DNA of 64,000 nt from Escherichia phage vB_EcoM_ESCO32 (OM386658.1), one strand, 5' to 3'; counted from the first letter of the stretch, positions 46,841-56,229 are shown. The notes: a model not told the origin generated them from the sequence alone. Made by a program: numbers and translations.

Positions 46841-48613
46841 GTGTCTTATGTTGTAAATAAATATGGGTATAACATTGACCTAAGTCAAGAAGGACATACT
46901 GGGTGTCCTCGTTGTATGAAAGGAGGGCGTGATCGATCACAAAACAATTTGATGGTATATGGCTTAGATGCCGATGAAGACCATCGAGGCGCACATTGTT
47001 TTTCTTGTGGCTTTACTATCCCTGATCAAAAATGGTTAAATGCACACGGTGAAGAAATTGAAGAGGAGGATATCTTGGGTAGTGAGTTTAATCCAGAAGT
47101 ACATGATAAACTAAAAGCCAGCACTGGAACTAATCCAAAAGGTTATCGCGGTATTCGTGAAGATATCTCTAAACCTTTCGGTGTACGCTATATGTACGAT
47201 GAAGCTACTGGCGAAGTAATTTCAACACTATACCCTACAACTAAAGATTACAATATTGCTGGGTATAAACAACGTATCGATCCAAAAGATTTTTCGCATC
47301 CTATTGGTGAAACAGGAAAGGATTGTGATCTTTTTGGTGAGTTTAAATATCGTAACCACAGTGGTACTATTCTAATCGTTGGTGGTGAACACGATATGCT
47401 GGCTGCAACACAGATGCTAAAAGATTATAACAAGGGCGGTAAATATCCTGTTCCTGCTGTAGTGTCTGGTACTTGTGGCGAAACATCTCTGCATAAGCAG
47501 CTTCAACATCGTTATAAATTCTTAGATCAATTTAAAAAGATTGTTCTGTGTATGGATAATGATGAAGCTGGACGTGCAGCAGTTGAGAAATGTGTTAAAA
47601 TCTTACCACGTAATAAAGTTTACGTGATGGAACTAACGGATGTTAAAGATCCTAACCAGGCACTAGTAGAAGGAAAAATTGATCATTTTATTGATCGCTT
47701 TTTCAAAGCTAAATTGTACACACCTGCTGGTGTTTACGCTTCTAACGTACTGTATGAAGCAGCCTTGGAATGCCTGGAAGCTAAAATGATCACCCTTCCT
47801 CCATTCATGCGTGTTGCTTCTAATATGTTAGGTGGAGGCTTGGTAGAAGAAGAAATTACTGTTATACTTGCAAAAACAAGTATCGGTAAGACACTGTTGG
47901 TTAACGAGATTACGAAACACATTATTCTTGCACACCCAGAACATACTCTTGGTATTTTATCTTTGGAGGCAACGTATAAGAAGTATTCTCGTAACTTGCT
48001 GTCTTCATTCTTGCATATCCCTCTTCACCGTAAAACAAAAGAAGAGAAGGAAAAGATTTTAAAAGATAATGAAGAAAAGATTCGTGATTTTTACGAACGA
48101 GAAGATGGAACACCACGTTTCTATGTTTGTGATGATCGTGGGGCTAACGTAGATGTGATTAAAGAGAAGGTTCTGGAAATGATTATTTATTTCGGAGTAA
48201 CCATTCTTGTTATCGACCCTTATTCTGACTTGCTTTCTGGTATGGACGTGTCACAACAAGAGGAACTTGCGACGTGGCTGAAACGCATTATGAAAGAGTA
48301 CGCAATAACCATTGTTGTAATTTCACACGTTAAAAAGTCTTCTAACAATAGTAATGAACATATTGTAGAAGATGATGCAATGGGTAGTAGCTTCCTTGCT
48401 AAAGGTGCTGGTATCACAATTGCGCTGGAGCGTGATAAACAAGCTGAAGATCCTATGGAACGTAACCGCACATATTGCTACATTCTAAAGAACCGTGAGT
48501 TCTCAGAGACTGGTGCAGCAGGTAGTTTCTTCTATGAGATTAAAACAGCTACACTTCACGATTACGATCAATACACAAGTAACCCAGAAAATATTTCTGC
48601 TGGTTCTTATTAA
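46841..48613 (+). CDS. bifunctional DNA primase-helicase (T7 gp4-like)
   Basis: ORF track 590 aa; GTG start after AGGAG; zinc ribbon CPRC...CFSCGF; Toprim-like LIVGGEHDMLAA / MDNDEAG; DnaB-type Walker A AKTSIGKT. Confidence 0.85.
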   Translation: MSYVVNKYGYNIDLSQEGHTGCPRCMKGGRDRSQNNLMVYGLDADEDHRGAHCFSCGFTIPDQKWLNAHGEEIEEEDILGSEFNPEVHDKLKASTGTNPKGYRGIREDISKPFGVRYMYDEATGEVISTLYPTTKDYNIAGYKQRIDPKDFSHPIGETGKDCDLFGEFKYRNHSGTILIVGGEHDMLAATQMLKDYNKGGKYPVPAVVSGTCGETSLHKQLQHRYKFLDQFKKIVLCMDNDEAGRAAVEKCVKILPRNKVYVMELTDVKDPNQALVEGKIDHFIDRFFKAKLYTPAGVYASNVLYEAALECLEAKMITLPPFMRVASNMLGGGLVEEEITVILAKTSIGKTLLVNEITKHIILAHPEHTLGILSLEATYKKYSRNLLSSFLHIPLHRKTKEEKEKILKDNEEKIRDFYEREDGTPRFYVCDDRGANVDVIKEKVLEMIIYFGVTILVIDPYSDLLSGMDVSQQEELATWLKRIMKEYAITIVVISHVKKSSNNSNEHIVEDDAMGSSFLAKGAGITIALERDKQAEDPMERNRTYCYILKNREFSETGAAGSFFYEIKTATLHDYDQYTSNPENISAGSY

Positions 48614-48623
48614 GGAGAAAAAT

Positions 48624-49019
48624 ATGAAAGACAACGAAAACATCCTCTATGGGGTATGCCCTTCTGCTTTAGCGTATGATTATACGAAAACTATTGCTAA
48701 GTTTAAATTTCAAGACGGATCAGAATTAGAACCATACGGTTATGCTTATGGTGAACATTTGTGGTTTGAGGATGGTTGTCTATACCTTCTCATTCAAACT
48801 ACCAGTGGTTTTGTGGGAGAGCTTGTAGATCGTATGTTGAAAAATGTCAGTGATAAAGTTATTCTTGATATCACTAGTAAGGATGAAAACATTAATAACA
48901 TTGTTTCCACTTTTAATGGTTTGACAGGCACTGTTAAAATTGAACGTGTAGGCTTGAGAAATACCAATGGTGTCCCTAATTGCCTTATTAAAGTACAACT
49001 AAGTGCTGACAATAAATAA
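48624..49019 (+). CDS. hypothetical protein (about 131 aa)
   Basis: ORF track frame 48495..49019; start at ATG after AAGGAGAAA. Confidence 0.55.
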   Translation: MKDNENILYGVCPSALAYDYTKTIAKFKFQDGSELEPYGYAYGEHLWFEDGCLYLLIQTTSGFVGELVDRMLKNVSDKVILDITSKDENINNIVSTFNGLTGTVKIERVGLRNTNGVPNCLIKVQLSADNK

Positions 49020-49109
49020 CAAGAAGGGGCGAAAGCCCCTTTACAAAACAATTAATTTGTGGTACAGTATTAACAAATTAAGACTTTAGAAATATTTTAA
49101 GGAGGGAGA

Positions 49110-52100
49110 ATGGGAGCTTTTACTTTCGACATTGAAAGTAACAACTTGCTTAATGACGAAAGTGTAGATTACTTGGCAAGTCCATATCGTTTAAAAGATA
49201 GTTTTGCAATGCACTGTATTGTGTGCGAAAGTCATGATACTGGAGAGATTATTGCTTTCCATGATGGTGATAAATATCTTTTCGATGGTCGTCCGTATGT
49301 TGAGACTGACGGAAAGTATGAATACCGACTGGAGGAATATGAGCATTTAGAATATACCCATTTCCCTCTTAAAGATTTTCCTGATTTTGTAAATGGAACA
49401 GGTAAATTTAAAGGTAATTCAAACTATAAAATTACCAAAGTAGTTGGACATAACATCATTAACTTTGACTTACTGGCAATTAAATTATTTTTTAAACTCA
49501 ACTACAGTATTAAGTACAATACTTGGGGTAATAGTAACATTGAAATTTGTGATACTATGATCTTAAGTAAGACACTAAACCCTGATCGCTTCGGTGGTCA
49601 TAGTCTGGCAGAGTTATCTAAGAAGGCTGGAGGGGATGTTAAAATTGATTTTAGAAAAAACATTCCTGAAACTGAAAGATTTAAAACATTTGCAGCAGAT
49701 ATGCTGTATTACTGTATTTACGATAACAAAGCTAACACCGCAGTGTTCCGTTATTTGATGGAAGAGTGGGGTGATTATAATAAGTGGTCTGAACCATTTA
49801 ACTTAGAACAACGTGTAGCTGATATTATTACACGTCAAGAGCACCGTGGCTTTGCTTTCAATATGAAACAAGCAGAAGATAATATTCGTGATCTGGATGC
49901 TCGAATGGAAGCATGTCGTTTAGAGGCAGAACCTGTGCTACCTCCTAAACCTGCTACTAAAGGTTATTTGAAATCATTCATTCCACCTAAACTACAGTTT
50001 AAAAAGAATGGTGAACCTTCAAGTAACATGATAAAGTTTGCAGAGAAACATTCTGGTGAACTTGTACAAAAAGAAGATGGTTGGTGGCTATTTGCATTAG
50101 GTAAAGAGTTTAAACTACCTATTCCAGCAGAAGAACCTATTTGTGATCCTACAGTACCTGCTACTTTAGACGACACTACACATATTAAAAACTGGTTAGT
50201 TGGTTTAGGTTGGAGTCCATCTGAATATAAAGATAAAGATATCACTCTTAAATCTGGCACTAAGATTAAGAAAGATGAAGCACAGATGGAGAAAGCTATT
50301 CGTGACTATGTTGATCAAACGTTAGCATCTAATTTCTGCCAGGACAGATGTGATCATCTGGAGTGCACACCAGAAACTTTGGAATGGAAACTAAGAGATC
50401 GTATTGCTAAAGCTAAAGGTCGTGGTGTTAAAGTGCTTACTAACCCTTCCTTTACAAAAGGGCAAGAGAAAGATATTTGTCCTAACTTGGAAGCACTAGG
50501 TGAAAAGTTTCCTTATGCTACGCAGATTGTGCAGTATCTTACGTATAAACACCGTAGGAACTCTATTCTAGGGGGTGGTGCTGATTGGGAAGAAGATGAA
50601 GAGGATTATGATAAAGGTTATCTGGCAGCAGTAAGGGCTGATGGTCGTATACCAACTCCTGCTGCAACGTGTGATGCAGCTACGTCTCGTATGAAACATA
50701 GGTTAGTAGCAAATATCCCACGTGTAACATCTCTGTACGGATATGAAATGCGTAACTTATTTGGTGTAGAAGTTCCAAAATACTTCCAAATTGGTTATGA
50801 TTTTGATTCTCTTGAGGCAAAAATAGAATCACACTACTGTGTACCTATGGATGCACAAGCACTAACCCGTAAAGGTTGGGTTGGTTATCACGATCTACAA
50901 GAAGGGGATGAAATCTTAGGATATAACCCAGAAACAGGACTTAAAGAATGGACTAAAGTAAAAGGTAAGGTCTTCTATAAAAATAGTAAGACGTTTGAGA
51001 TTAAAGGAAAATCCCATACTTACCGTGCAACAGCAGATCACCGTTGGTATGTTAATACCCGTAGTAAAGGGAATACTTATGTGCCTAAAGTCAGAACAAC
51101 TGCCGAGCTTTGCACAGGAGATAATATTATTTGTAATGCTCCATTTAACATGGAACAAGATCAGGTAAATAGTTTAACTTCTGTTCAACAAGGTAAATGG
51201 GATGTTCCGTGGGTAGAGCGTGTAGTTAATATGTCTCATGCCGAGCGTGTAGCTTTCTTGGAAGGTTTCTTGATTGCAGATGGTTACTGGCATGAACATA
51301 AACAAAAACCTGTTTGGCGTTGGGCGCAGAACCCAGGTGAACTTTTTGAAGCAGCTTTAACTGCCTCGTACCTGGTGCATGGAGGCAATATCTCTGTAGC
51401 TTTCAATACAAAAGAGCAGAAAGTAAAAGTGGCAACATTGGCTAACCGCTCTCACATTCCTGTTCAAAGTTTGACTATTGAAGAGTGGGGTGTAGAGGAT
51501 GTTTGGTGTCCACAAACAGAACTTGGTACGTGGGTCATGCGTCAGAAAGACTGCATTACCATCACAGGAAACTGTTGGCGGTACGAGCAGGAACCACACG
51601 AATATTGTAATGCTCTATTATTGGAAAAACCTAATGATGTTCATACAATGATGGCTCGACGTATTTCTGACACTATTGGTCGTAAGTTTGAACGAAGCCC
51701 TGCTAAATCTGTTAAGTATGGTATTACTTATGGTGCTCAAGCTGCAAAAGTAGCAAAAACTATAGGTAGTGATATGTATACCGGACAGCTTGTATACGAT
51801 GCTTTCTGGGAAGCTGCAAAACCTCTTGCGCTTCTTAAAGAACGTCTGCATGACTTTTGGGTTAAAACAGGTAAGAAATACATTCTGGGTATTGATGGTA
51901 GGAAAGTACCTACACGATCTGCACACGCAATACTTAACTCTCTGTTCCAGAGTGGTGGTGTTATTTGTGCAAAAAGAGCAATGGTTATCTACGACGATCT
52001 TATCGAAGAAGAAGGATTAGCTGTTGACTTTTTTGTTGATGACTGGAAAAATAAGTCATTCGTTCAACAAATGATTGCATATCACGATGAAGCACAGCTT

Positions 52101-52424
52101 GAAGTAACTCGTGATCTGGTGCATTTTAAATGGTTCTCTAAAGAATCTTTAGGTTGGACTCAAGTTGATGATCCAGAAGAACAAAAGAAAATTGATAAAG
52201 AATGTTTGGATAAAGTTAATGCCTGGAAAGAAGAGGAAGAGAAACGTACTGGCAAGATTTGGGCTAACGTACATGAATCTCCGAAAGGTGGTTGGTTTAC
52301 AGCCTACAGTCGTGCTGGAGAATTAGCATCTATCGCTGTTAATAAAGCTGGTGAGTATTACAATCTTAATGTACCTCTCACTGCTGGTTACGATGTTGGT
52401 AACTCATGGGCCAGTTGTCATTAG
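49110..52424 (+). CDS. family-A DNA polymerase (T7-like) interrupted by an intein
   Basis: ORF track 1104 aa; exo FDIESNNL; motif A DFDSLEAKIESHY; post-intein CWRYEQEPHEY...DVHT parallels T7 pol as recalled; motif B KYGITYGAQ; motif C YHDE. Confidence 0.9.
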   Translation: MGAFTFDIESNNLLNDESVDYLASPYRLKDSFAMHCIVCESHDTGEIIAFHDGDKYLFDGRPYVETDGKYEYRLEEYEHLEYTHFPLKDFPDFVNGTGKFKGNSNYKITKVVGHNIINFDLLAIKLFFKLNYSIKYNTWGNSNIEICDTMILSKTLNPDRFGGHSLAELSKKAGGDVKIDFRKNIPETERFKTFAADMLYYCIYDNKANTAVFRYLMEEWGDYNKWSEPFNLEQRVADIITRQEHRGFAFNMKQAEDNIRDLDARMEACRLEAEPVLPPKPATKGYLKSFIPPKLQFKKNGEPSSNMIKFAEKHSGELVQKEDGWWLFALGKEFKLPIPAEEPICDPTVPATLDDTTHIKNWLVGLGWSPSEYKDKDITLKSGTKIKKDEAQMEKAIRDYVDQTLASNFCQDRCDHLECTPETLEWKLRDRIAKAKGRGVKVLTNPSFTKGQEKDICPNLEALGEKFPYATQIVQYLTYKHRRNSILGGGADWEEDEEDYDKGYLAAVRADGRIPTPAATCDAATSRMKHRLVANIPRVTSLYGYEMRNLFGVEVPKYFQIGYDFDSLEAKIESHYCVPMDAQALTRKGWVGYHDLQEGDEILGYNPETGLKEWTKVKGKVFYKNSKTFEIKGKSHTYRATADHRWYVNTRSKGNTYVPKVRTTAELCTGDNIICNAPFNMEQDQVNSLTSVQQGKWDVPWVERVVNMSHAERVAFLEGFLIADGYWHEHKQKPVWRWAQNPGELFEAALTASYLVHGGNISVAFNTKEQKVKVATLANRSHIPVQSLTIEEWGVEDVWCPQTELGTWVMRQKDCITITGNCWRYEQEPHEYCNALLLEKPNDVHTMMARRISDTIGRKFERSPAKSVKYGITYGAQAAKVAKTIGSDMYTGQLVYDAFWEAAKPLALLKERLHDFWVKTGKKYILGIDGRKVPTRSAHAILNSLFQSGGVICAKRAMVIYDDLIEEEGLAVDFFVDDWKNKSFVQQMIAYHDEAQLEVTRDLVHFKWFSKESLGWTQVDDPEEQKKIDKECLDKVNAWKEEEEKRTGKIWANVHESPKGGWFTAYSRAGELASIAVNKAGEYYNLNVPLTAGYDVGNSWASCH
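50838..51572 (+). mobile_element. intein (245 aa) with LAGLIDADG-type homing-endonuclease motif inside the DNA polymerase
   Basis: starts CVPMDAQALTRKGW (block A), TADHRWY (block B), LEGFLIADGYW (LAGLIDADG-like), ends ITGN followed by +1 Cys; inserted right after polymerase motif A. Confidence 0.7.
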
Positions 52425-52453
52425 TCTAACATATTGTTTTATAAGGAGTTTTT

Positions 52454-53041
52454 ATGGTATATGGTCATGGTATTTTTGATGGAGATTTTACTGTAAGATC
52501 TCCTAGAGGAACTATGCACCCTGCTTATATGAAATGGATGTCTATGTTGGGGAGGTGTTACTCCCCTTGTCAACAAGAACGTGATCCTTGTTATAATGGG
52601 GTGACAGTTTGTGAAGAATGGAAGTTGTTCTCCAATTTCTATTCCTGGTTGCAAACTTGGGATGACTGGGAAAACTTAGAACTTGATAAAGATATTATAG
52701 GAGGGAGAGTTTACTCTCCCAATACCTGTCTTTTAGTAACAGGAGATCTTAATAAGTTCTTAGCTTATAGAGTAAGTAAAAGATCTCATGGGACTATGGT
52801 GGGATGTAGTTACGAGAAAGATCGTAAAAAGTATAAAGCCAACATAAAAGTAGGCGGTCGCATGAAAACGCTGGGACGTTTTAATACTGAAATTGAAGCG
52901 CATCTTTGTTGGTTGAAGGCTAAGGCAGAACAGCTTACAAAATTCTTTGAAACTGAAGATGAAAGAGTTGTTCCACATCTTAAAGCACTATATAATGAAA
53001 TGCTTGAGCATGTAGAACAACACAAAGAGTGGACACGATAG
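52454..53041 (+). CDS. AP2-domain DNA-binding protein (possible homing-endonuclease-related)
   Basis: ORF track 195 aa; AP2-like GCSYEKDRKKYKANIKVGGRMKTLGRFNTEIEAHLCWLKA; N-terminal Cys/Trp-rich region of unknown type; no HNH or GIY-YIG motif seen. Confidence 0.6.
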   Translation: MVYGHGIFDGDFTVRSPRGTMHPAYMKWMSMLGRCYSPCQQERDPCYNGVTVCEEWKLFSNFYSWLQTWDDWENLELDKDIIGGRVYSPNTCLLVTGDLNKFLAYRVSKRSHGTMVGCSYEKDRKKYKANIKVGGRMKTLGRFNTEIEAHLCWLKAKAEQLTKFFETEDERVVPHLKALYNEMLEHVEQHKEWTR

Positions 53042-53049
53042 GAGAAAAT

Positions 53050-53643
53050 ATGAATATTGAAGATCAAAAAGTACGAGCTTTAGAAGTATTACGTATGTGC
53101 CAACTGGTAGATCCGTTTGCAATTGTAGCTGGCGGCGCTGTACGTGACTGGCGATTAGAGAAACCTGCGCAAGATATTGACATTTACTTGCGTATGCCTA
53201 ACCACAATACACTCGTATTAGTAGAGAAATTTTTGATGTTGGGTGTTGGTGCACGTAATGTTAAACAACTTACTAAGCAAACAGAACACACTTATGCCGA
53301 ACTACCACATTTGAAATGGGTATTTGAAGCATACTATAAAGATCTTAAGTTTAACTTTATGATCATGGAAGAAGGTGTACGCAGTGAAATCGTATGGAAC
53401 TTTGATGTGGCTATTTGCCTGTGTTACTGGGATGGTCAAAATTATGTATATCATCCAGACTTTGAATTTGCACTGAAAACTAATATTTGTACTATTAATC
53501 ACCGATACACAGGTAAGGAAGCACACGTCCGTAAAATGGCAGAACGTTTCCCTATGTTCCGCTTTGTAAAAGACGTTTTCATTCCCAAAGAACCAGAAGT
53601 ACGTACACTGGATTCATTTAACAACGAAGAATTTAAGATTTAA
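53050..53643 (+). CDS. nucleotidyltransferase (CCA/poly(A)-polymerase head-domain type)
   Basis: ORF track frame 53029..53643; start at ATG after AGGAGAAAA; IVAGGAVRDWRLEKPAQDIDIYL matches the GGxVRD...DxD motif. Confidence 0.6.
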   Translation: MNIEDQKVRALEVLRMCQLVDPFAIVAGGAVRDWRLEKPAQDIDIYLRMPNHNTLVLVEKFLMLGVGARNVKQLTKQTEHTYAELPHLKWVFEAYYKDLKFNFMIMEEGVRSEIVWNFDVAICLCYWDGQNYVYHPDFEFALKTNICTINHRYTGKEAHVRKMAERFPMFRFVKDVFIPKEPEVRTLDSFNNEEFKI

Positions 53644-53686
53644 GTGTTGACAAACATTATAATTATGTGTTATTATGAGGACTTGA

Positions 53687-54085
53687 ATGACAGATAATCG
53701 TTCTAAAATCTTAGTCGAGACGTTCTACAGTAGAGAAACTAACCGTCTTGAGCTAACTAAAAAAGATGTTGAACCTCAAGATAATACCTTTTTTATTCAA
53801 ATACTATGTCTCTTTGGTGGATACAACCGTTTAACAGTGCGGGTAGAAAACAAAGAGATATCTGAAACCACTATCACAAAACGTGAGCTTATGTTACTAC
53901 AGGATACAATACGAGATGTTTTGGATAATCCTGGAAAAGCAAAAGTAATTAACCTTGGTGGAGAAAAGATACAAATCCTCCATTTCGAAAGTGGTGAAAT
54001 AGGATTTGGTATTGGTCTTGGTAAATACCTGTTGGAAGAAACTGACGCTACTCTTTTACGAGAGTTTTGTGTTAAAGTAATGTAA
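53687..54085 (+). CDS. hypothetical protein (132 aa)
   Basis: ORF track; TTGACA-type promoter just upstream. Confidence 0.55.
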   Translation: MTDNRSKILVETFYSRETNRLELTKKDVEPQDNTFFIQILCLFGGYNRLTVRVENKEISETTITKRELMLLQDTIRDVLDNPGKAKVINLGGEKIQILHFESGEIGFGIGLGKYLLEETDATLLREFCVKVM

Positions 54086-54101
54086 TTATAGAGGAGAATT
54101 T

Positions 54102-55049
54102 ATGCCAGTAATTAATTCTGAAATCGACCGTCGTACTAAAAAAGAAGCATTCTGGGCTGAAGGTATCGTTGAATATGTCAAACTGGATAAGTTTGATGAA
54201 ATGAAAGTCTCTTATATTAAGGTTGCAGGTCAGCCAGATAAGAAAATTGAATCAACTCACAAAGCATCTCTGCTTATTAAAGAGAAAGGTGCTAGTGCTG
54301 ATGATAAAGGTGTTTGGGTTAGCCTAGGTGAAGTTAAACTGCATCCAGAACATGAAAACCTGCAAGTTAAAGATGGTGACAAGTGGGTTACTATCGAAAA
54401 AGGTGTAGAACTAACTATGGATGTTAAACCTTCTGAATGGAATGGCAAAACATACTACAATTCCTCTAAAGGTAAAATCACTATTCTTTCAACAGAAGGT
54501 GTTCAGCAAGCACAATCTTCTTCAAAAGGTGGAAATAAGCCATCTAATAACGAAGGTAGCAAGCCTAACTACAAAAAACGTGATACCGTAGGGATTGAAA
54601 CAGGACACGCTGTAAACGGCGCTCTGGAGCTTCTACGTGCTGGTGTGAAAGGTGATGCTTTCGACTTGGCTGGTGTGGTACAATCTGCAACTGTTACTCT
54701 GAAAGCAGAAATTGCTAAAGATCGTGGCGTTGATGTGACTGACTATGATCTTGGTGCTTCAGTTGGACACGCAATTCTTAACGCTTGTCGTGATCATACA
54801 GGTAAAACTGTAACGGCAGAAGAGATTATTGAAGCTGCTCGTGAAGTTCTTGCTTTGTCTGATAAAGTAGCTGCTGCTATCCGTGGAATGTCTACCCCAG
54901 TACAAGAAGTTAAGAAAGAAACTAAAAAAGTAGAGAAGAAAGAGCCAGCACCGAAAGAACCAGAACCTGTTGTTCAAGATTTCGATGATGATATCCCATT
55001 TGCTCCTATTGGTTTGCAGTATGGTCGAAACTTCCTGCACTGTTTCTAA
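54102..55049 (+). CDS. putative ssDNA-binding protein with SSB-type acidic tail motif
   Basis: ORF track 315 aa; AGAGGAGAA RBS; near C-terminus QDFDDDIPF matches the E. coli SSB tail as recalled, followed by 16 more residues. Confidence 0.5.
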   Translation: MPVINSEIDRRTKKEAFWAEGIVEYVKLDKFDEMKVSYIKVAGQPDKKIESTHKASLLIKEKGASADDKGVWVSLGEVKLHPEHENLQVKDGDKWVTIEKGVELTMDVKPSEWNGKTYYNSSKGKITILSTEGVQQAQSSSKGGNKPSNNEGSKPNYKKRDTVGIETGHAVNGALELLRAGVKGDAFDLAGVVQSATVTLKAEIAKDRGVDVTDYDLGASVGHAILNACRDHTGKTVTAEEIIEAAREVLALSDKVAAAIRGMSTPVQEVKKETKKVEKKEPAPKEPEPVVQDFDDDIPFAPIGLQYGRNFLHCF

Positions 55050-55071
55050 TAGTTAAATATTGTGTAAATAT

Positions 55072-55097
55072 AAGGAGCCTAACGGCTCCTTTTCTTT
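55072..55097 (+). terminator. rho-independent terminator
   Basis: AAGGAGCCtaacGGCTCCTT followed by TTCTTTG. Confidence 0.55.
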
Positions 55098-55109
55098 GAA
55101 GGAGATATA

Positions 55110-55841
55110 ATGAGCGAATTTGTAAACAACACCGCGTTAAACTACCTGCAAACCCTCGAAAGCAATAGTGTAGATTTGATTCTTACTGACCCACCATATG
55201 CTATTTCTCGTGACACAAATTTTCAATCTGGAGAGCCTACTGGAAAAGATACAGATAGATTCCGTGTATCTTACAACTTTGGGGATTGGGATGTTGTAGA
55301 TATTCCTTACTTTAAAGAAGTATTCAAAGAAGCCTATAGGGTGCTTAGAAAAGGTGGTACTTGCATAGTTTGGTATGATATCTGGAAGATCCAGGAGCTA
55401 CGTGAAATCCTTGAACCGCTTGGTTTTCGTATGTTCCGTACTATTGAATGGATTAAAACAAACCCTGTACCCATCAACAGTGGTGTTAACTACCTTAGTA
55501 ACGCTAAAGAGATGGCTATTGTTTGTGTTAAAGGTTCTAAGCCAACCTTCAATGCCTCCTACCACAAGGGTGTGTTTGAGTATCCTATCTATCAAGGAGC
55601 AGATCGTTTTCATCCGACACAAAAACACTTGACTTTGTTTTGTGACCTTATTAATATACATACCAACGAAGGAGATGTAGTCTTAGACTTCTTCTCTGGA
55701 AGTGCAACAACACAAGTTGCGGCACTTTTAACAGGTAGAGAATACTTAGGCTGTGAAGCCGATGTAAATATTTTTAAGCAAGCGGAGGAACGACTAAATG
55801 AGTACACTGAACAGCAAAATCACCCTGAAAGCACTGATTAA
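55110..55841 (+). CDS. DNA amino-methyltransferase (N6-adenine or N4-cytosine), beta class
   Basis: ORF track 243 aa; DPPY catalytic motif (LILTDPPYAI) precedes SAM-binding DFFSGSATT. Confidence 0.8.
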   Translation: MSEFVNNTALNYLQTLESNSVDLILTDPPYAISRDTNFQSGEPTGKDTDRFRVSYNFGDWDVVDIPYFKEVFKEAYRVLRKGGTCIVWYDIWKIQELREILEPLGFRMFRTIEWIKTNPVPINSGVNYLSNAKEMAIVCVKGSKPTFNASYHKGVFEYPIYQGADRFHPTQKHLTLFCDLINIHTNEGDVVLDFFSGSATTQVAALLTGREYLGCEADVNIFKQAEERLNEYTEQQNHPESTD

Positions 55842-56229
55842 CAACGGTATGAACCTGGACTCTGGTCTGTCTCCAAAGATTTCTATGGCACGACTAGAAC
55901 AAGTTACTGGTCTTCGTCAAGTAAGTAATGGCGGTAAGATTATTCGTGATGACGCTGTACCTTTTAATAAATTTCAGATTGAACGTCATTACGATCCTGT
56001 AACTGCAAGTCTCACTGGTGTAACTTTCTCAGGTTATCGTACTGCCGGATACCAACGTAAGGTTGTAGCTGAACGTATTAAAAATCGCAAACAGAAAATT
56101 GCAACATTGAAGAAACTAGTAGAGAAAGATGTTTCAGAACTTCTTAACCTGTATGAAACTCTTGAGACAAAAGGTGAAGATCATAAACTCTTCTCTAAAG
56201 AAGATGTGAGCGTAATTTTCACTGATTAA
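55798..56229 (+). CDS. hypothetical protein (143 aa)
   Basis: ORF track; last plus-strand gene before the convergent late genes. Confidence 0.5.
   Translation: MSTLNSKITLKALINNGMNLDSGLSPKISMARLEQVTGLRQVSNGGKIIRDDAVPFNKFQIERHYDPVTASLTGVTFSGYRTAGYQRKVVAERIKNRKQKIATLKKLVEKDVSELLNLYETLETKGEDHKLFSKEDVSVIFTD

Follow-up and report, generated by a model that had tools for sequence, protein, structure and literature searches.

A probable free-standing IPA-HNH homing endonuclease gene with an AP2 domain beside the DNA polymerase gene of a phi92-like coliphage

Organization of the locus

The window, that is, the whole 64,000-nucleotide stretch of DNA from Escherichia phage vB_EcoM_ESCO32 (OM386658.1) that was analysed, derives from a phi92-like Justusliebigvirus (Stephanstirmvirinae); over bases 48000-56000 it shares 98.3% identity with Escherichia phage PaulScherrer, and more than 50 related records match there. 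In this region, the short spacer between a family-A DNA polymerase gene and a nucleotidyltransferase gene is occupied by a gene of 195 codons, which starts with ATG 29 nt beyond the polymerase stop codon and 5 nt after an AAGGAG ribosome-binding site. The original prediction had placed this reading frame directly downstream of an intein-containing polymerase, and the list of reading frames gives it exactly so, the polymerase being annotated as intein-containing in the near-identical phage PaulScherrer. The features of the locus, with the evidence for each in brackets, are as follows.

49110..52424, plus strand: family-A DNA polymerase gene, 1104 aa with the intein (list of reading frames, Pfam, annotation of PaulScherrer and phi92, junction alignment)
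50841..51575, plus strand: intein of 245 aa in the polymerase, beginning with C and ending in ITGN followed by C (mat_peptide annotation of PaulScherrer, translation, Pfam)
52443..52448, plus strand: ribosome-binding site AAGGAG of the endonuclease gene (sequence, junction alignments)
52454..53041, plus strand: probable free-standing IPA-HNH homing endonuclease gene, 195 aa, coordinates including the stop codon (reading frame, PHROG 953, BLASTP, dN/dS)
52454..52528, plus strand: hypervariable N-terminal segment, aa 1-25 (allele comparison, dN/dS)
52454..52774, plus strand: N-terminal nuclease-like domain of an atypical HNH (ββα-metal) type, aa 1-107 (predicted fold, conservation)
52685..52693, plus strand: codons of D78-K79-D80 at the end of β1 (conservation; spacing compared with I-HmuI and P0101)
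52712..52720, plus strand: codons of Y87-S88-P89 in the inter-strand loop (conservation; PacI mechanism)
52751..52753, plus strand: codon of N100 in the α-helix of the ββα motif, a putative metal ligand (conservation, spacing, model)
52796..52948, plus strand: AP2-type DNA-binding domain, aa ~115-165 (Pfam matches of homologs, profile, Foldseek, model)
52814..52873, plus strand: divergence hot spot in the AP2 β2-β3 hairpin, aa 121-140 (allele comparison, dN/dS)
52949..53038, plus strand: C-terminal helical tail, aa 166-195 (model, dN/dS)
53040..53052, plus strand: AGGAG ribosome-binding site (53040-53044) and ATG (53050) of the nucleotidyltransferase gene (sequence, alignments)

The polymerase is recognized by the Pfam model DNA_pol_A (E 7.7e-11). 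The last ~25 nt of its gene (52400-52424) form a cluster of substitutions among relatives, with N/S, A/S and S/T codons and alternative stop codons, and follow a sequence that is nearly invariant; these variants are not sorted by the presence of the endonuclease gene. At the other border, the TAG stop codon of the endonuclease gene (53039-53041) overlaps the ribosome-binding site of the nucleotidyltransferase gene, and the junction does not differ between phages that have the endonuclease gene and phages that lack it. In the mechanical reading frame, as in the annotation of PaulScherrer, the nucleotidyltransferase gene begins at GTG 53029, inside the endonuclease gene; the ATG at 53050 after AGGAG, as annotated in phi92, is the more plausible start. 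Around the start of the endonuclease gene, promoter-like sites occur at the background level, terminators were not found and the fold z-score is 0.34. The gene has no paralog elsewhere in the window. A small gene between the primase/helicase and polymerase genes (48621-49019, plus strand) is called 'potential Endonuclease/Hydrolase' in the phi92 record and gives nothing in Pfam.

The AP2 domain

The C-terminal half of the protein is an AP2 domain, composed of a three-stranded β-sheet and an α-helix and homologous to solved AP2 domains. In the predicted model the strands span residues 118-121, 126-133 and 136-143 and the helix residues 146-165, and the peptide YKANIKVGGRMKTLGRFNTEIEAHLCW, which had been quoted as the AP2 motif in the original prediction, corresponds to residues 126-152. 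The domain itself was correctly predicted, but it had been called clear, and this it is not, because the Pfam AP2 model (PF00847) leaves the window protein unmatched even at E<=1. The same model matches 12 of 49 homologs (best E 6.8e-8) and nine of 103 relatives in a further set, and the family profile finds the AP2/ERF structure of WRI1 in the PDB with an E-value of 2.4e-5, the four that rank next, each of them weak (E 0.07-0.8), being AP2/ERF structures as well. In a Foldseek search with the whole predicted model, AP2 structures were ranked first and were the only ones found. An HMM search for AP2 and nuclease domains, proposed as a check at the outset, therefore has a divided outcome: Pfam recognizes neither in the window protein, and AP2 emerges through the homologs and the profile. 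Judged by its Pfam result alone, the prediction had a weak case at first, since the lack of an AP2 profile hit had been named as a refutation.

With the AP2/ERF domains of plants and apicomplexans (PF00847; 1gcc, 7et4, 7wq5), the window protein shares the three-stranded sheet with its helix and the signature G..(K/R)Y.A.I......LG.F.T..EA. It differs from them in lying below Pfam detection, in its additional helical tail and in a β2-β3 hairpin that is hypervariable among alleles.

The N-terminal nuclease-like domain

The N-terminal half had been described as Cys/Trp-rich and as free of recognizable HNH or GIY-YIG motifs. Its composition is as described, with five Trp (W28, 56, 65, 69 and 72) and five Cys residues (C35, 39, 46, 53 and 92). 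As far as Pfam is concerned the second statement also holds, since the HNH, HNH_3 and GIY-YIG models do not match the window protein; nor does any NCBIfam model, and PADLOC yields negligible matches only. The domain is nevertheless not motif-less, given its invariant D78-K79 and Y87 and its predicted PacI-like fold, and the whole protein is matched by PHROG 953, 'HNH endonuclease', with an E-value of 3e-76.

Conservation was assessed in 149 sequences, namely the query and its 148 most similar representatives (≤50% mutual identity). W28, Y47, W56, F62, W65, D78, K79 and Y87 are invariant in this set, and R34, D80, C92 and N100 nearly so. Among the Cys residues, only C35, C53 and C92 are conserved in the family of the N-terminal domain, and they form no CxxC pairs. 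The window copy keeps every conserved residue of the family. In both AF2 models, helices over residues 23-66 are followed by β76-78, β93-95 and α97-108, which together constitute a ββα unit; this predicted unit carries the invariant D78 and the nearly invariant N100 at a spacing like that of I-HmuI. D78-K79-D80 is found where HNH_3 enzymes have their 'DH'. None of the family sequences examined has the canonical general-base histidine, and the invariant K79 stands in its place.

The domain (aa 1-107) is widespread. It was found by tblastn in 1,535 phage records, in which the first word of the organism name is Vibrio in 826, Rheinheimera in 115, Bacillus in 99 and Escherichia in 83, and a search of 1.84 billion representatives at 50% identity found it in 9,857 clusters (2,603 at E<=1e-10). 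Profile searches of the PDB, with the family profile and with the N-terminal domain alone, found no nuclease. Matches of the domain alone to deoxycytidine kinase (E about 0.03) in these searches were rejected as a chance similarity in the W-rich stretch.

Comparison with PacI and with canonical HNH_3-AP2 enzymes

The closest counterpart of the predicted ββα fold is the HNH restriction enzyme PacI (PDB 3m7k/3ldy; His-Me finger group 20), in which an N-terminal helical module likewise precedes the ββα unit and the catalytic histidine is likewise absent. In PacI, Asp and Asn hold the metal, and a tyrosine of the inter-strand loop replaces the histidine base (PMC5714182, PMC4081073). By topology of the model, this tyrosine and the Asp/Asn metal ligands would be paralleled by Y87, D78 and N100, and Y87 is thus a candidate for a PacI-like catalytic tyrosine. 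The two proteins are otherwise different: the PDB profile search detects no sequence homology between them, PacI possesses two Cys4 zinc sites where the present family has three conserved, non-paired Cys residues, and PacI, a restriction enzyme that works as a homodimer, has no AP2.

Canonical HNH(HNH_3)-AP2 enzymes (Magnani et al. 2004), exemplified by the NUMOD4-HNH_3-AP2 protein P0101, resemble the window protein in the order of nuclease and AP2 domains, in their free-standing phage homing-endonuclease lifestyle and in spacing. The distance from the base position to the helix Asn is 21 residues in all three cases compared (K79 to N100 here, H75 to N96 in I-HmuI and H86 to N107 in P0101), and that from the base position to the first Gly of AP2 is 38 (K79 to G117), as against 37 in P0101. 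In the canonical enzymes, however, the nuclease half resembles I-HmuI (PDB 1u3e) and has a catalytic His where the present family has the invariant Lys; the middle Asn of their motif corresponds to the invariant Tyr in a gapless manual alignment that carries no statistical support, and their NUMOD4 N-terminal part is replaced by the Trp-rich helical module. The Pfam HNH_3 and HNH models match none of about 150 family members, and hhalign of the N-terminal domain profile with a 120-sequence profile of the I-HmuI family gives a probability below 1%, the best, insignificant local match falling in the NUMOD4 part. Therefore, homology to HNH_3 at the sequence level is not claimed.

The missing histidine raises the question of whether the protein cleaves DNA at all. 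It might be a domesticated, catalytically dead protein in which the ββα scaffold (as in the MH1 domain of Smad) and AP2 do no more than bind DNA, either as a transcriptional regulator, a role that the original prediction had also considered, or as an anti-defence or anti-competitor silencer comparable with the CapR+AP2 'CasPR' proteins. The invariance of K79 at the base position fits such a protein, as do the precedents of His-Me finger groups that have lost the base and can be non-catalytic DNA binders (PMC5714182) and of phage AP2 proteins that can be pure repressors (bioRxiv 10.64898/2026.02.23.707548). It is difficult to reconcile with this idea that D78 and N100, which are of the metal-ligand type, are conserved together with Y87 across thousands of clusters, because these residues are the catalytic set of PacI. 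The CasPR anti-CRISPR repressors are also small phage proteins in which an N-terminal module derived from a homing endonuclease is joined to AP2, but this module is the CapR Cys zinc finger, and they are located in acr loci of Bacillota prophages; inspection of the N-terminal domain of the window protein shows no CapR zinc finger, the motif CxxC...CxC being missing. A purely DNA-binding, regulator-like role is therefore less likely than that of a homing endonuclease, and, with the evidence from the locus described below, we regard it as unlikely.

Relationship to the IPA-HNH family

The window protein is related over both domains to Gp59 of the Vibrio phage ICP1 (34% identity over 156 aa in BLASTP, E 1e-21; Gp59 at L006:2240-3055), and its N-terminal domain alone finds ICP1 gp59 by tblastn with an E-value of 3e-11. 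Three proteins, Gp59, Gp115-116 and Gp209, are the founding members of the IPA-HNH ('ICP1-like Phage AP2-associated HNH') family of homing endonuclease genes (HEGs), in which an atypical N-terminal HNH domain, found by HHsearch only, is combined with a C-terminal AP2 domain (Barth, Dunham & Seed 2023; PMC10448857). That report describes no cleavage assay and does not discuss the missing histidine (PMC10448857). A full-text search for 'IPA-HNH' returned this bioinformatic paper alone, with no biochemical report for any member, a result that is also compatible with a protein that binds DNA without cutting it.

Both proteins have the motif LDKD...Y.P..C...N, escape the Pfam HNH models, end in AP2 and are free-standing. 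The window protein is shorter, being without the ~87-aa N-terminal extension of Gp59, and its host lineage, the Stephanstirmvirinae coliphages, differs from that of the ICP1 members. The homology to Gp59 and the polymorphism of the locus bear out the original assignment to free-standing genes of the homing endonuclease type with AP2. Many longer family members (e.g. P0040-P0058) carry an extra N-terminal module of ~50-60 aa that is not in the window protein, and one of them, P0052, matches DUF723 (PF05265); these modules and that of Gp59 are probably additional DNA-binding modules.

The genomic setting is also shared. Gp59 lies directly 3' of the ICP1 polymerase Gp58, whose homology to the window polymerase extends as far as the C-terminus (34% identity, E 2e-36; L006:1-3058). 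Since the polymerases are orthologous and each is adjoined by an IPA-HNH gene, one family of HEGs has evidently come to occupy one site in very distant phages. IPA-HNH genes are abundant in Barbaviruses and Flaumdraviruses, and 29% of them lie beside DNA polymerase genes (PMC10448857); such HEG-like fidelity to sites beside essential genes is a further argument against a catalytically dead regulator.

Another relative is ORF014 of Dickeya phage LIMEstone1 (L016:3221-3793; 33% identity, tblastn E 1e-19), which is situated between two CDS for DNA topoisomerase II (ORF013 and ORF015) and is absent from the table of homing endonucleases in the LIMEstone1 paper. 'Hef' of phage U5 was also considered as the family and was rejected: tblastn of the window protein within LIMEstone1 matches ORF014 alone and leaves the Hef-like F-LimIII ('Hef (Acj9)', 548 aa) unmatched, the first 50 kb of Acj9 contain no match, and HNH-AP2 and hef-like genes constitute separate classes (Petrov et al.).

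Presence, absence and decay of the gene in related phages

The original prediction had suggested comparing the locus in related phages, and the gene proves to be present, absent or decayed among them. In all 11 HEG-bearing loci examined (the window and 10 phages), it is located directly 3' of the polymerase gene. The carriers among Justusliebigvirus are PaulScherrer, KKP_3264, pEC-M2929, PATM, PD06 and alia, and the others are the Phapecoctavirus phages nieznany, iGC_PHA_EC001 and phiWec179 and the Klebsiella phage KP2025. About 27 of 55 Justusliebigvirus records have an intact gene. The HEG-less Justusliebigvirus genomes inspected, six listed ones and phi92 (aligned directly), share one common deletion of 488 bp, and the same deletion is assumed for the remaining HEG-less records. 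What the deletion leaves is the ribosome-binding site, the ATG and ~94 nt of the 3' end, full of stops and frameshifts, and phi92 and muut accordingly contain only a decayed remnant that retains the ribosome-binding site and the ATG. A gene that is dispensable, having been lost in about half of the close relatives, does not look like a domesticated regulator.

Most Phapecoctavirus genomes are without the gene. Of these, ESCO13 has a clean empty site, a 49-nt spacer whose junction sequences on both sides are common with those of nieznany. The ESCO13 spacer (L004:3424-3471) contains, exactly at the position of the HEG in nieznany, a GC-rich hairpin, AAGGGGC-TTCT-GCCCCTT, which may be a terminator or part of a target site. 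No substitution at the 3' end of the polymerase gene consistently separates genomes with the HEG from those without it, and therefore no target or immunity site was identified. In the Klebsiella phage KP2025, the annotation divides the polymerase into two CDS with a gap of 478 nt between them (L014:1213-1691), pointing to an intron or other insertion upstream of the HEG.

Alleles and selection

The alleles of the gene are mosaic. For the N-terminal segment (aa 1-25) there are two types, type A, MVYGHGIFDGDF..., and type B, found in other phages, MLTVYGEGINDLEGES..., which diverge with a dN/dS of about 1 and both of which occur in both genera. In the β2-β3 hairpin of AP2 (aa 121-140), several variants reassort among genomes, and because dS and dN are both high there, this part has been shaped by mosaic recombination between diverged alleles. 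Segments of the HEG from different genera are 87-97% identical where the adjacent 3' ends of the polymerase genes are about 78-80% identical, and two HEG alleles within Phapecoctavirus differ far more than the polymerases do. The sharing of mosaic alleles across genera also counts against a domesticated protein that only binds DNA.

Outside these segments the sequence is strongly constrained, and the window endonuclease gene is under purifying selection. Among Justusliebigvirus and Phapecoctavirus alleles, dN/dS is 0.07-0.12 in the nuclease-like core (aa 26-120) and 0-0.07 in aa 141-195, the latter value rising to 0.16-0.25 when the more distant Klebsiella phage KP2025 is compared; in the C-terminal tail (aa 166-195), dN is about 0 among close alleles. 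Such strong purifying selection would also be expected of a domesticated DNA-binding protein.

It is with these values that the original suggestion of a degenerate homing endonuclease, decaying after the loss of its catalytic motif, has to be compared. The suggestion is understandable in view of the missing His-containing HNH motif and the failure of the Pfam nuclease models. The absence of the histidine is, however, a property of the whole family and no lesion of the window copy, in which all family-invariant residues are present and the core dN/dS is about 0.1, and real decay at this locus takes the form of the 488-bp deletion with stops and frameshifts seen in phi92 and muut. Because the window gene has the full conserved set and is under purifying selection, 'degenerate' is a fitting description of those remnants and not of this gene, for which we consider it very improbable.

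The polymerase intein and the possibility of other nuclease roles

The intein of the polymerase, which runs from CVPMDAQ to ITGN before the following C, lies ~880 bp upstream of the endonuclease gene. Pfam matches it weakly, with Intein_splicing at E 0.027 and one LAGLIDADG motif, 'FLEGFLIADG', at E 0.15, and for this reason its sequence is probably that of an intein without a working endonuclease. Close relatives vary in whether they have the intein, which is missing from records with 91% coverage of the query, and intein and HEG occur in all four combinations of presence and absence; the two elements are therefore not tightly linked.

The proximity of such an intein bears on a further explanation, in which the protein would be an active site-specific nuclease or nickase with a main role other than its own homing, such as exclusion or degradation of related phages that compete with it (marker exclusion), stimulation of recombination or replication in the vicinity of the polymerase gene or mobilization of the intein in trans. 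Enzymes of the HNH_3 group that are of the I-HmuI type are nickases, which is in keeping with it, as are the selection acting on the gene in many genomes and the weak LAGLIDADG motif of the neighboring intein. A precedent for action in trans is the free-standing HEG mobE of T4, which promotes the trans-homing of a defunct element (PMC2790892). The loose linkage between intein and HEG does not favor this explanation, the sequence offers nothing by which such a role could be told from ordinary homing, and exclusion and homing are two faces of one activity. We consider it distinctly unlikely, somewhat more so than a role in DNA binding only.

A proposed model for the probable homing endonuclease

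The explanation that we prefer, with a probability of roughly 0.7, is that the reading frame is an intact free-standing HEG of the IPA-HNH family, lodged in the spacer between the polymerase and nucleotidyltransferase genes, and that its product is predicted to cleave DNA. From the conservation, the predicted fold and the behavior of the locus we infer nuclease activity, the roles of the catalytic residues, a target site and homing itself.

The protein would consist of two modules. The N-terminal module of ~105 aa would be a ββα-metal domain of the HNH superfamily without the canonical histidine, with D78-K79-D80, Y87, C92 and N100 as its conserved set, and the C-terminal module, AP2 with the helical tail, would provide sequence-specific DNA binding. 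In a mixed infection, AP2 would bind a site at or near the 3' end of the polymerase gene, or in the spacer, of genomes without the gene, and the nuclease domain would then nick or cut nearby. The metal ligands in this reaction would be D78 and N100, and the attacking water would be activated either by Y87, as in PacI, or by K79. Recombinational repair from the HEG-bearing genome would subsequently copy the gene together with flanking polymerase sequence, and where the gene became fixed or useless it would decay, as in the remnants of phi92 and muut.

A broader proposal is tentative and, in our estimate, has the odds somewhat against it: IPA-HNH may represent a very large clade of ββα-metal nucleases in which the histidine has been permanently replaced by the loop tyrosine Y87, by Lys79 or by both, with the Asp/Asn metal site kept, and the member described here might also drive trans-homing of the intein.

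Implications

Genes of this kind are currently labeled 'hypothetical protein' or, generically, 'HNH endonuclease', the latter being the name of the RefSeq orthologs in alia, PD06 and PHB05; on the present reading, the annotation of the window gene should be an IPA-HNH/AP2 free-standing homing endonuclease. The modestly new elements are that the family is uniformly His-less, that it has a D-K...Y...N signature and that its predicted fold is PacI-like. The locus offers a compact natural series of the life cycle of an HEG, from intact and mosaic genes to a clean empty site and decayed remnants, and, being situated beside an essential polymerase gene with a polymorphic intein, it could lend itself to experiments in coliphages that are easy to grow. 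For enzymology, the family comprises about 10,000 representative clusters with an HNH-like predicted fold, an invariant D-K...Y...N and no histidine. If the histidine has indeed been replaced by Y87 or Lys79, these proteins would be a variant of the HNH superfamily with a catalysis of its own, put to use for homing by thousands of phage lineages.
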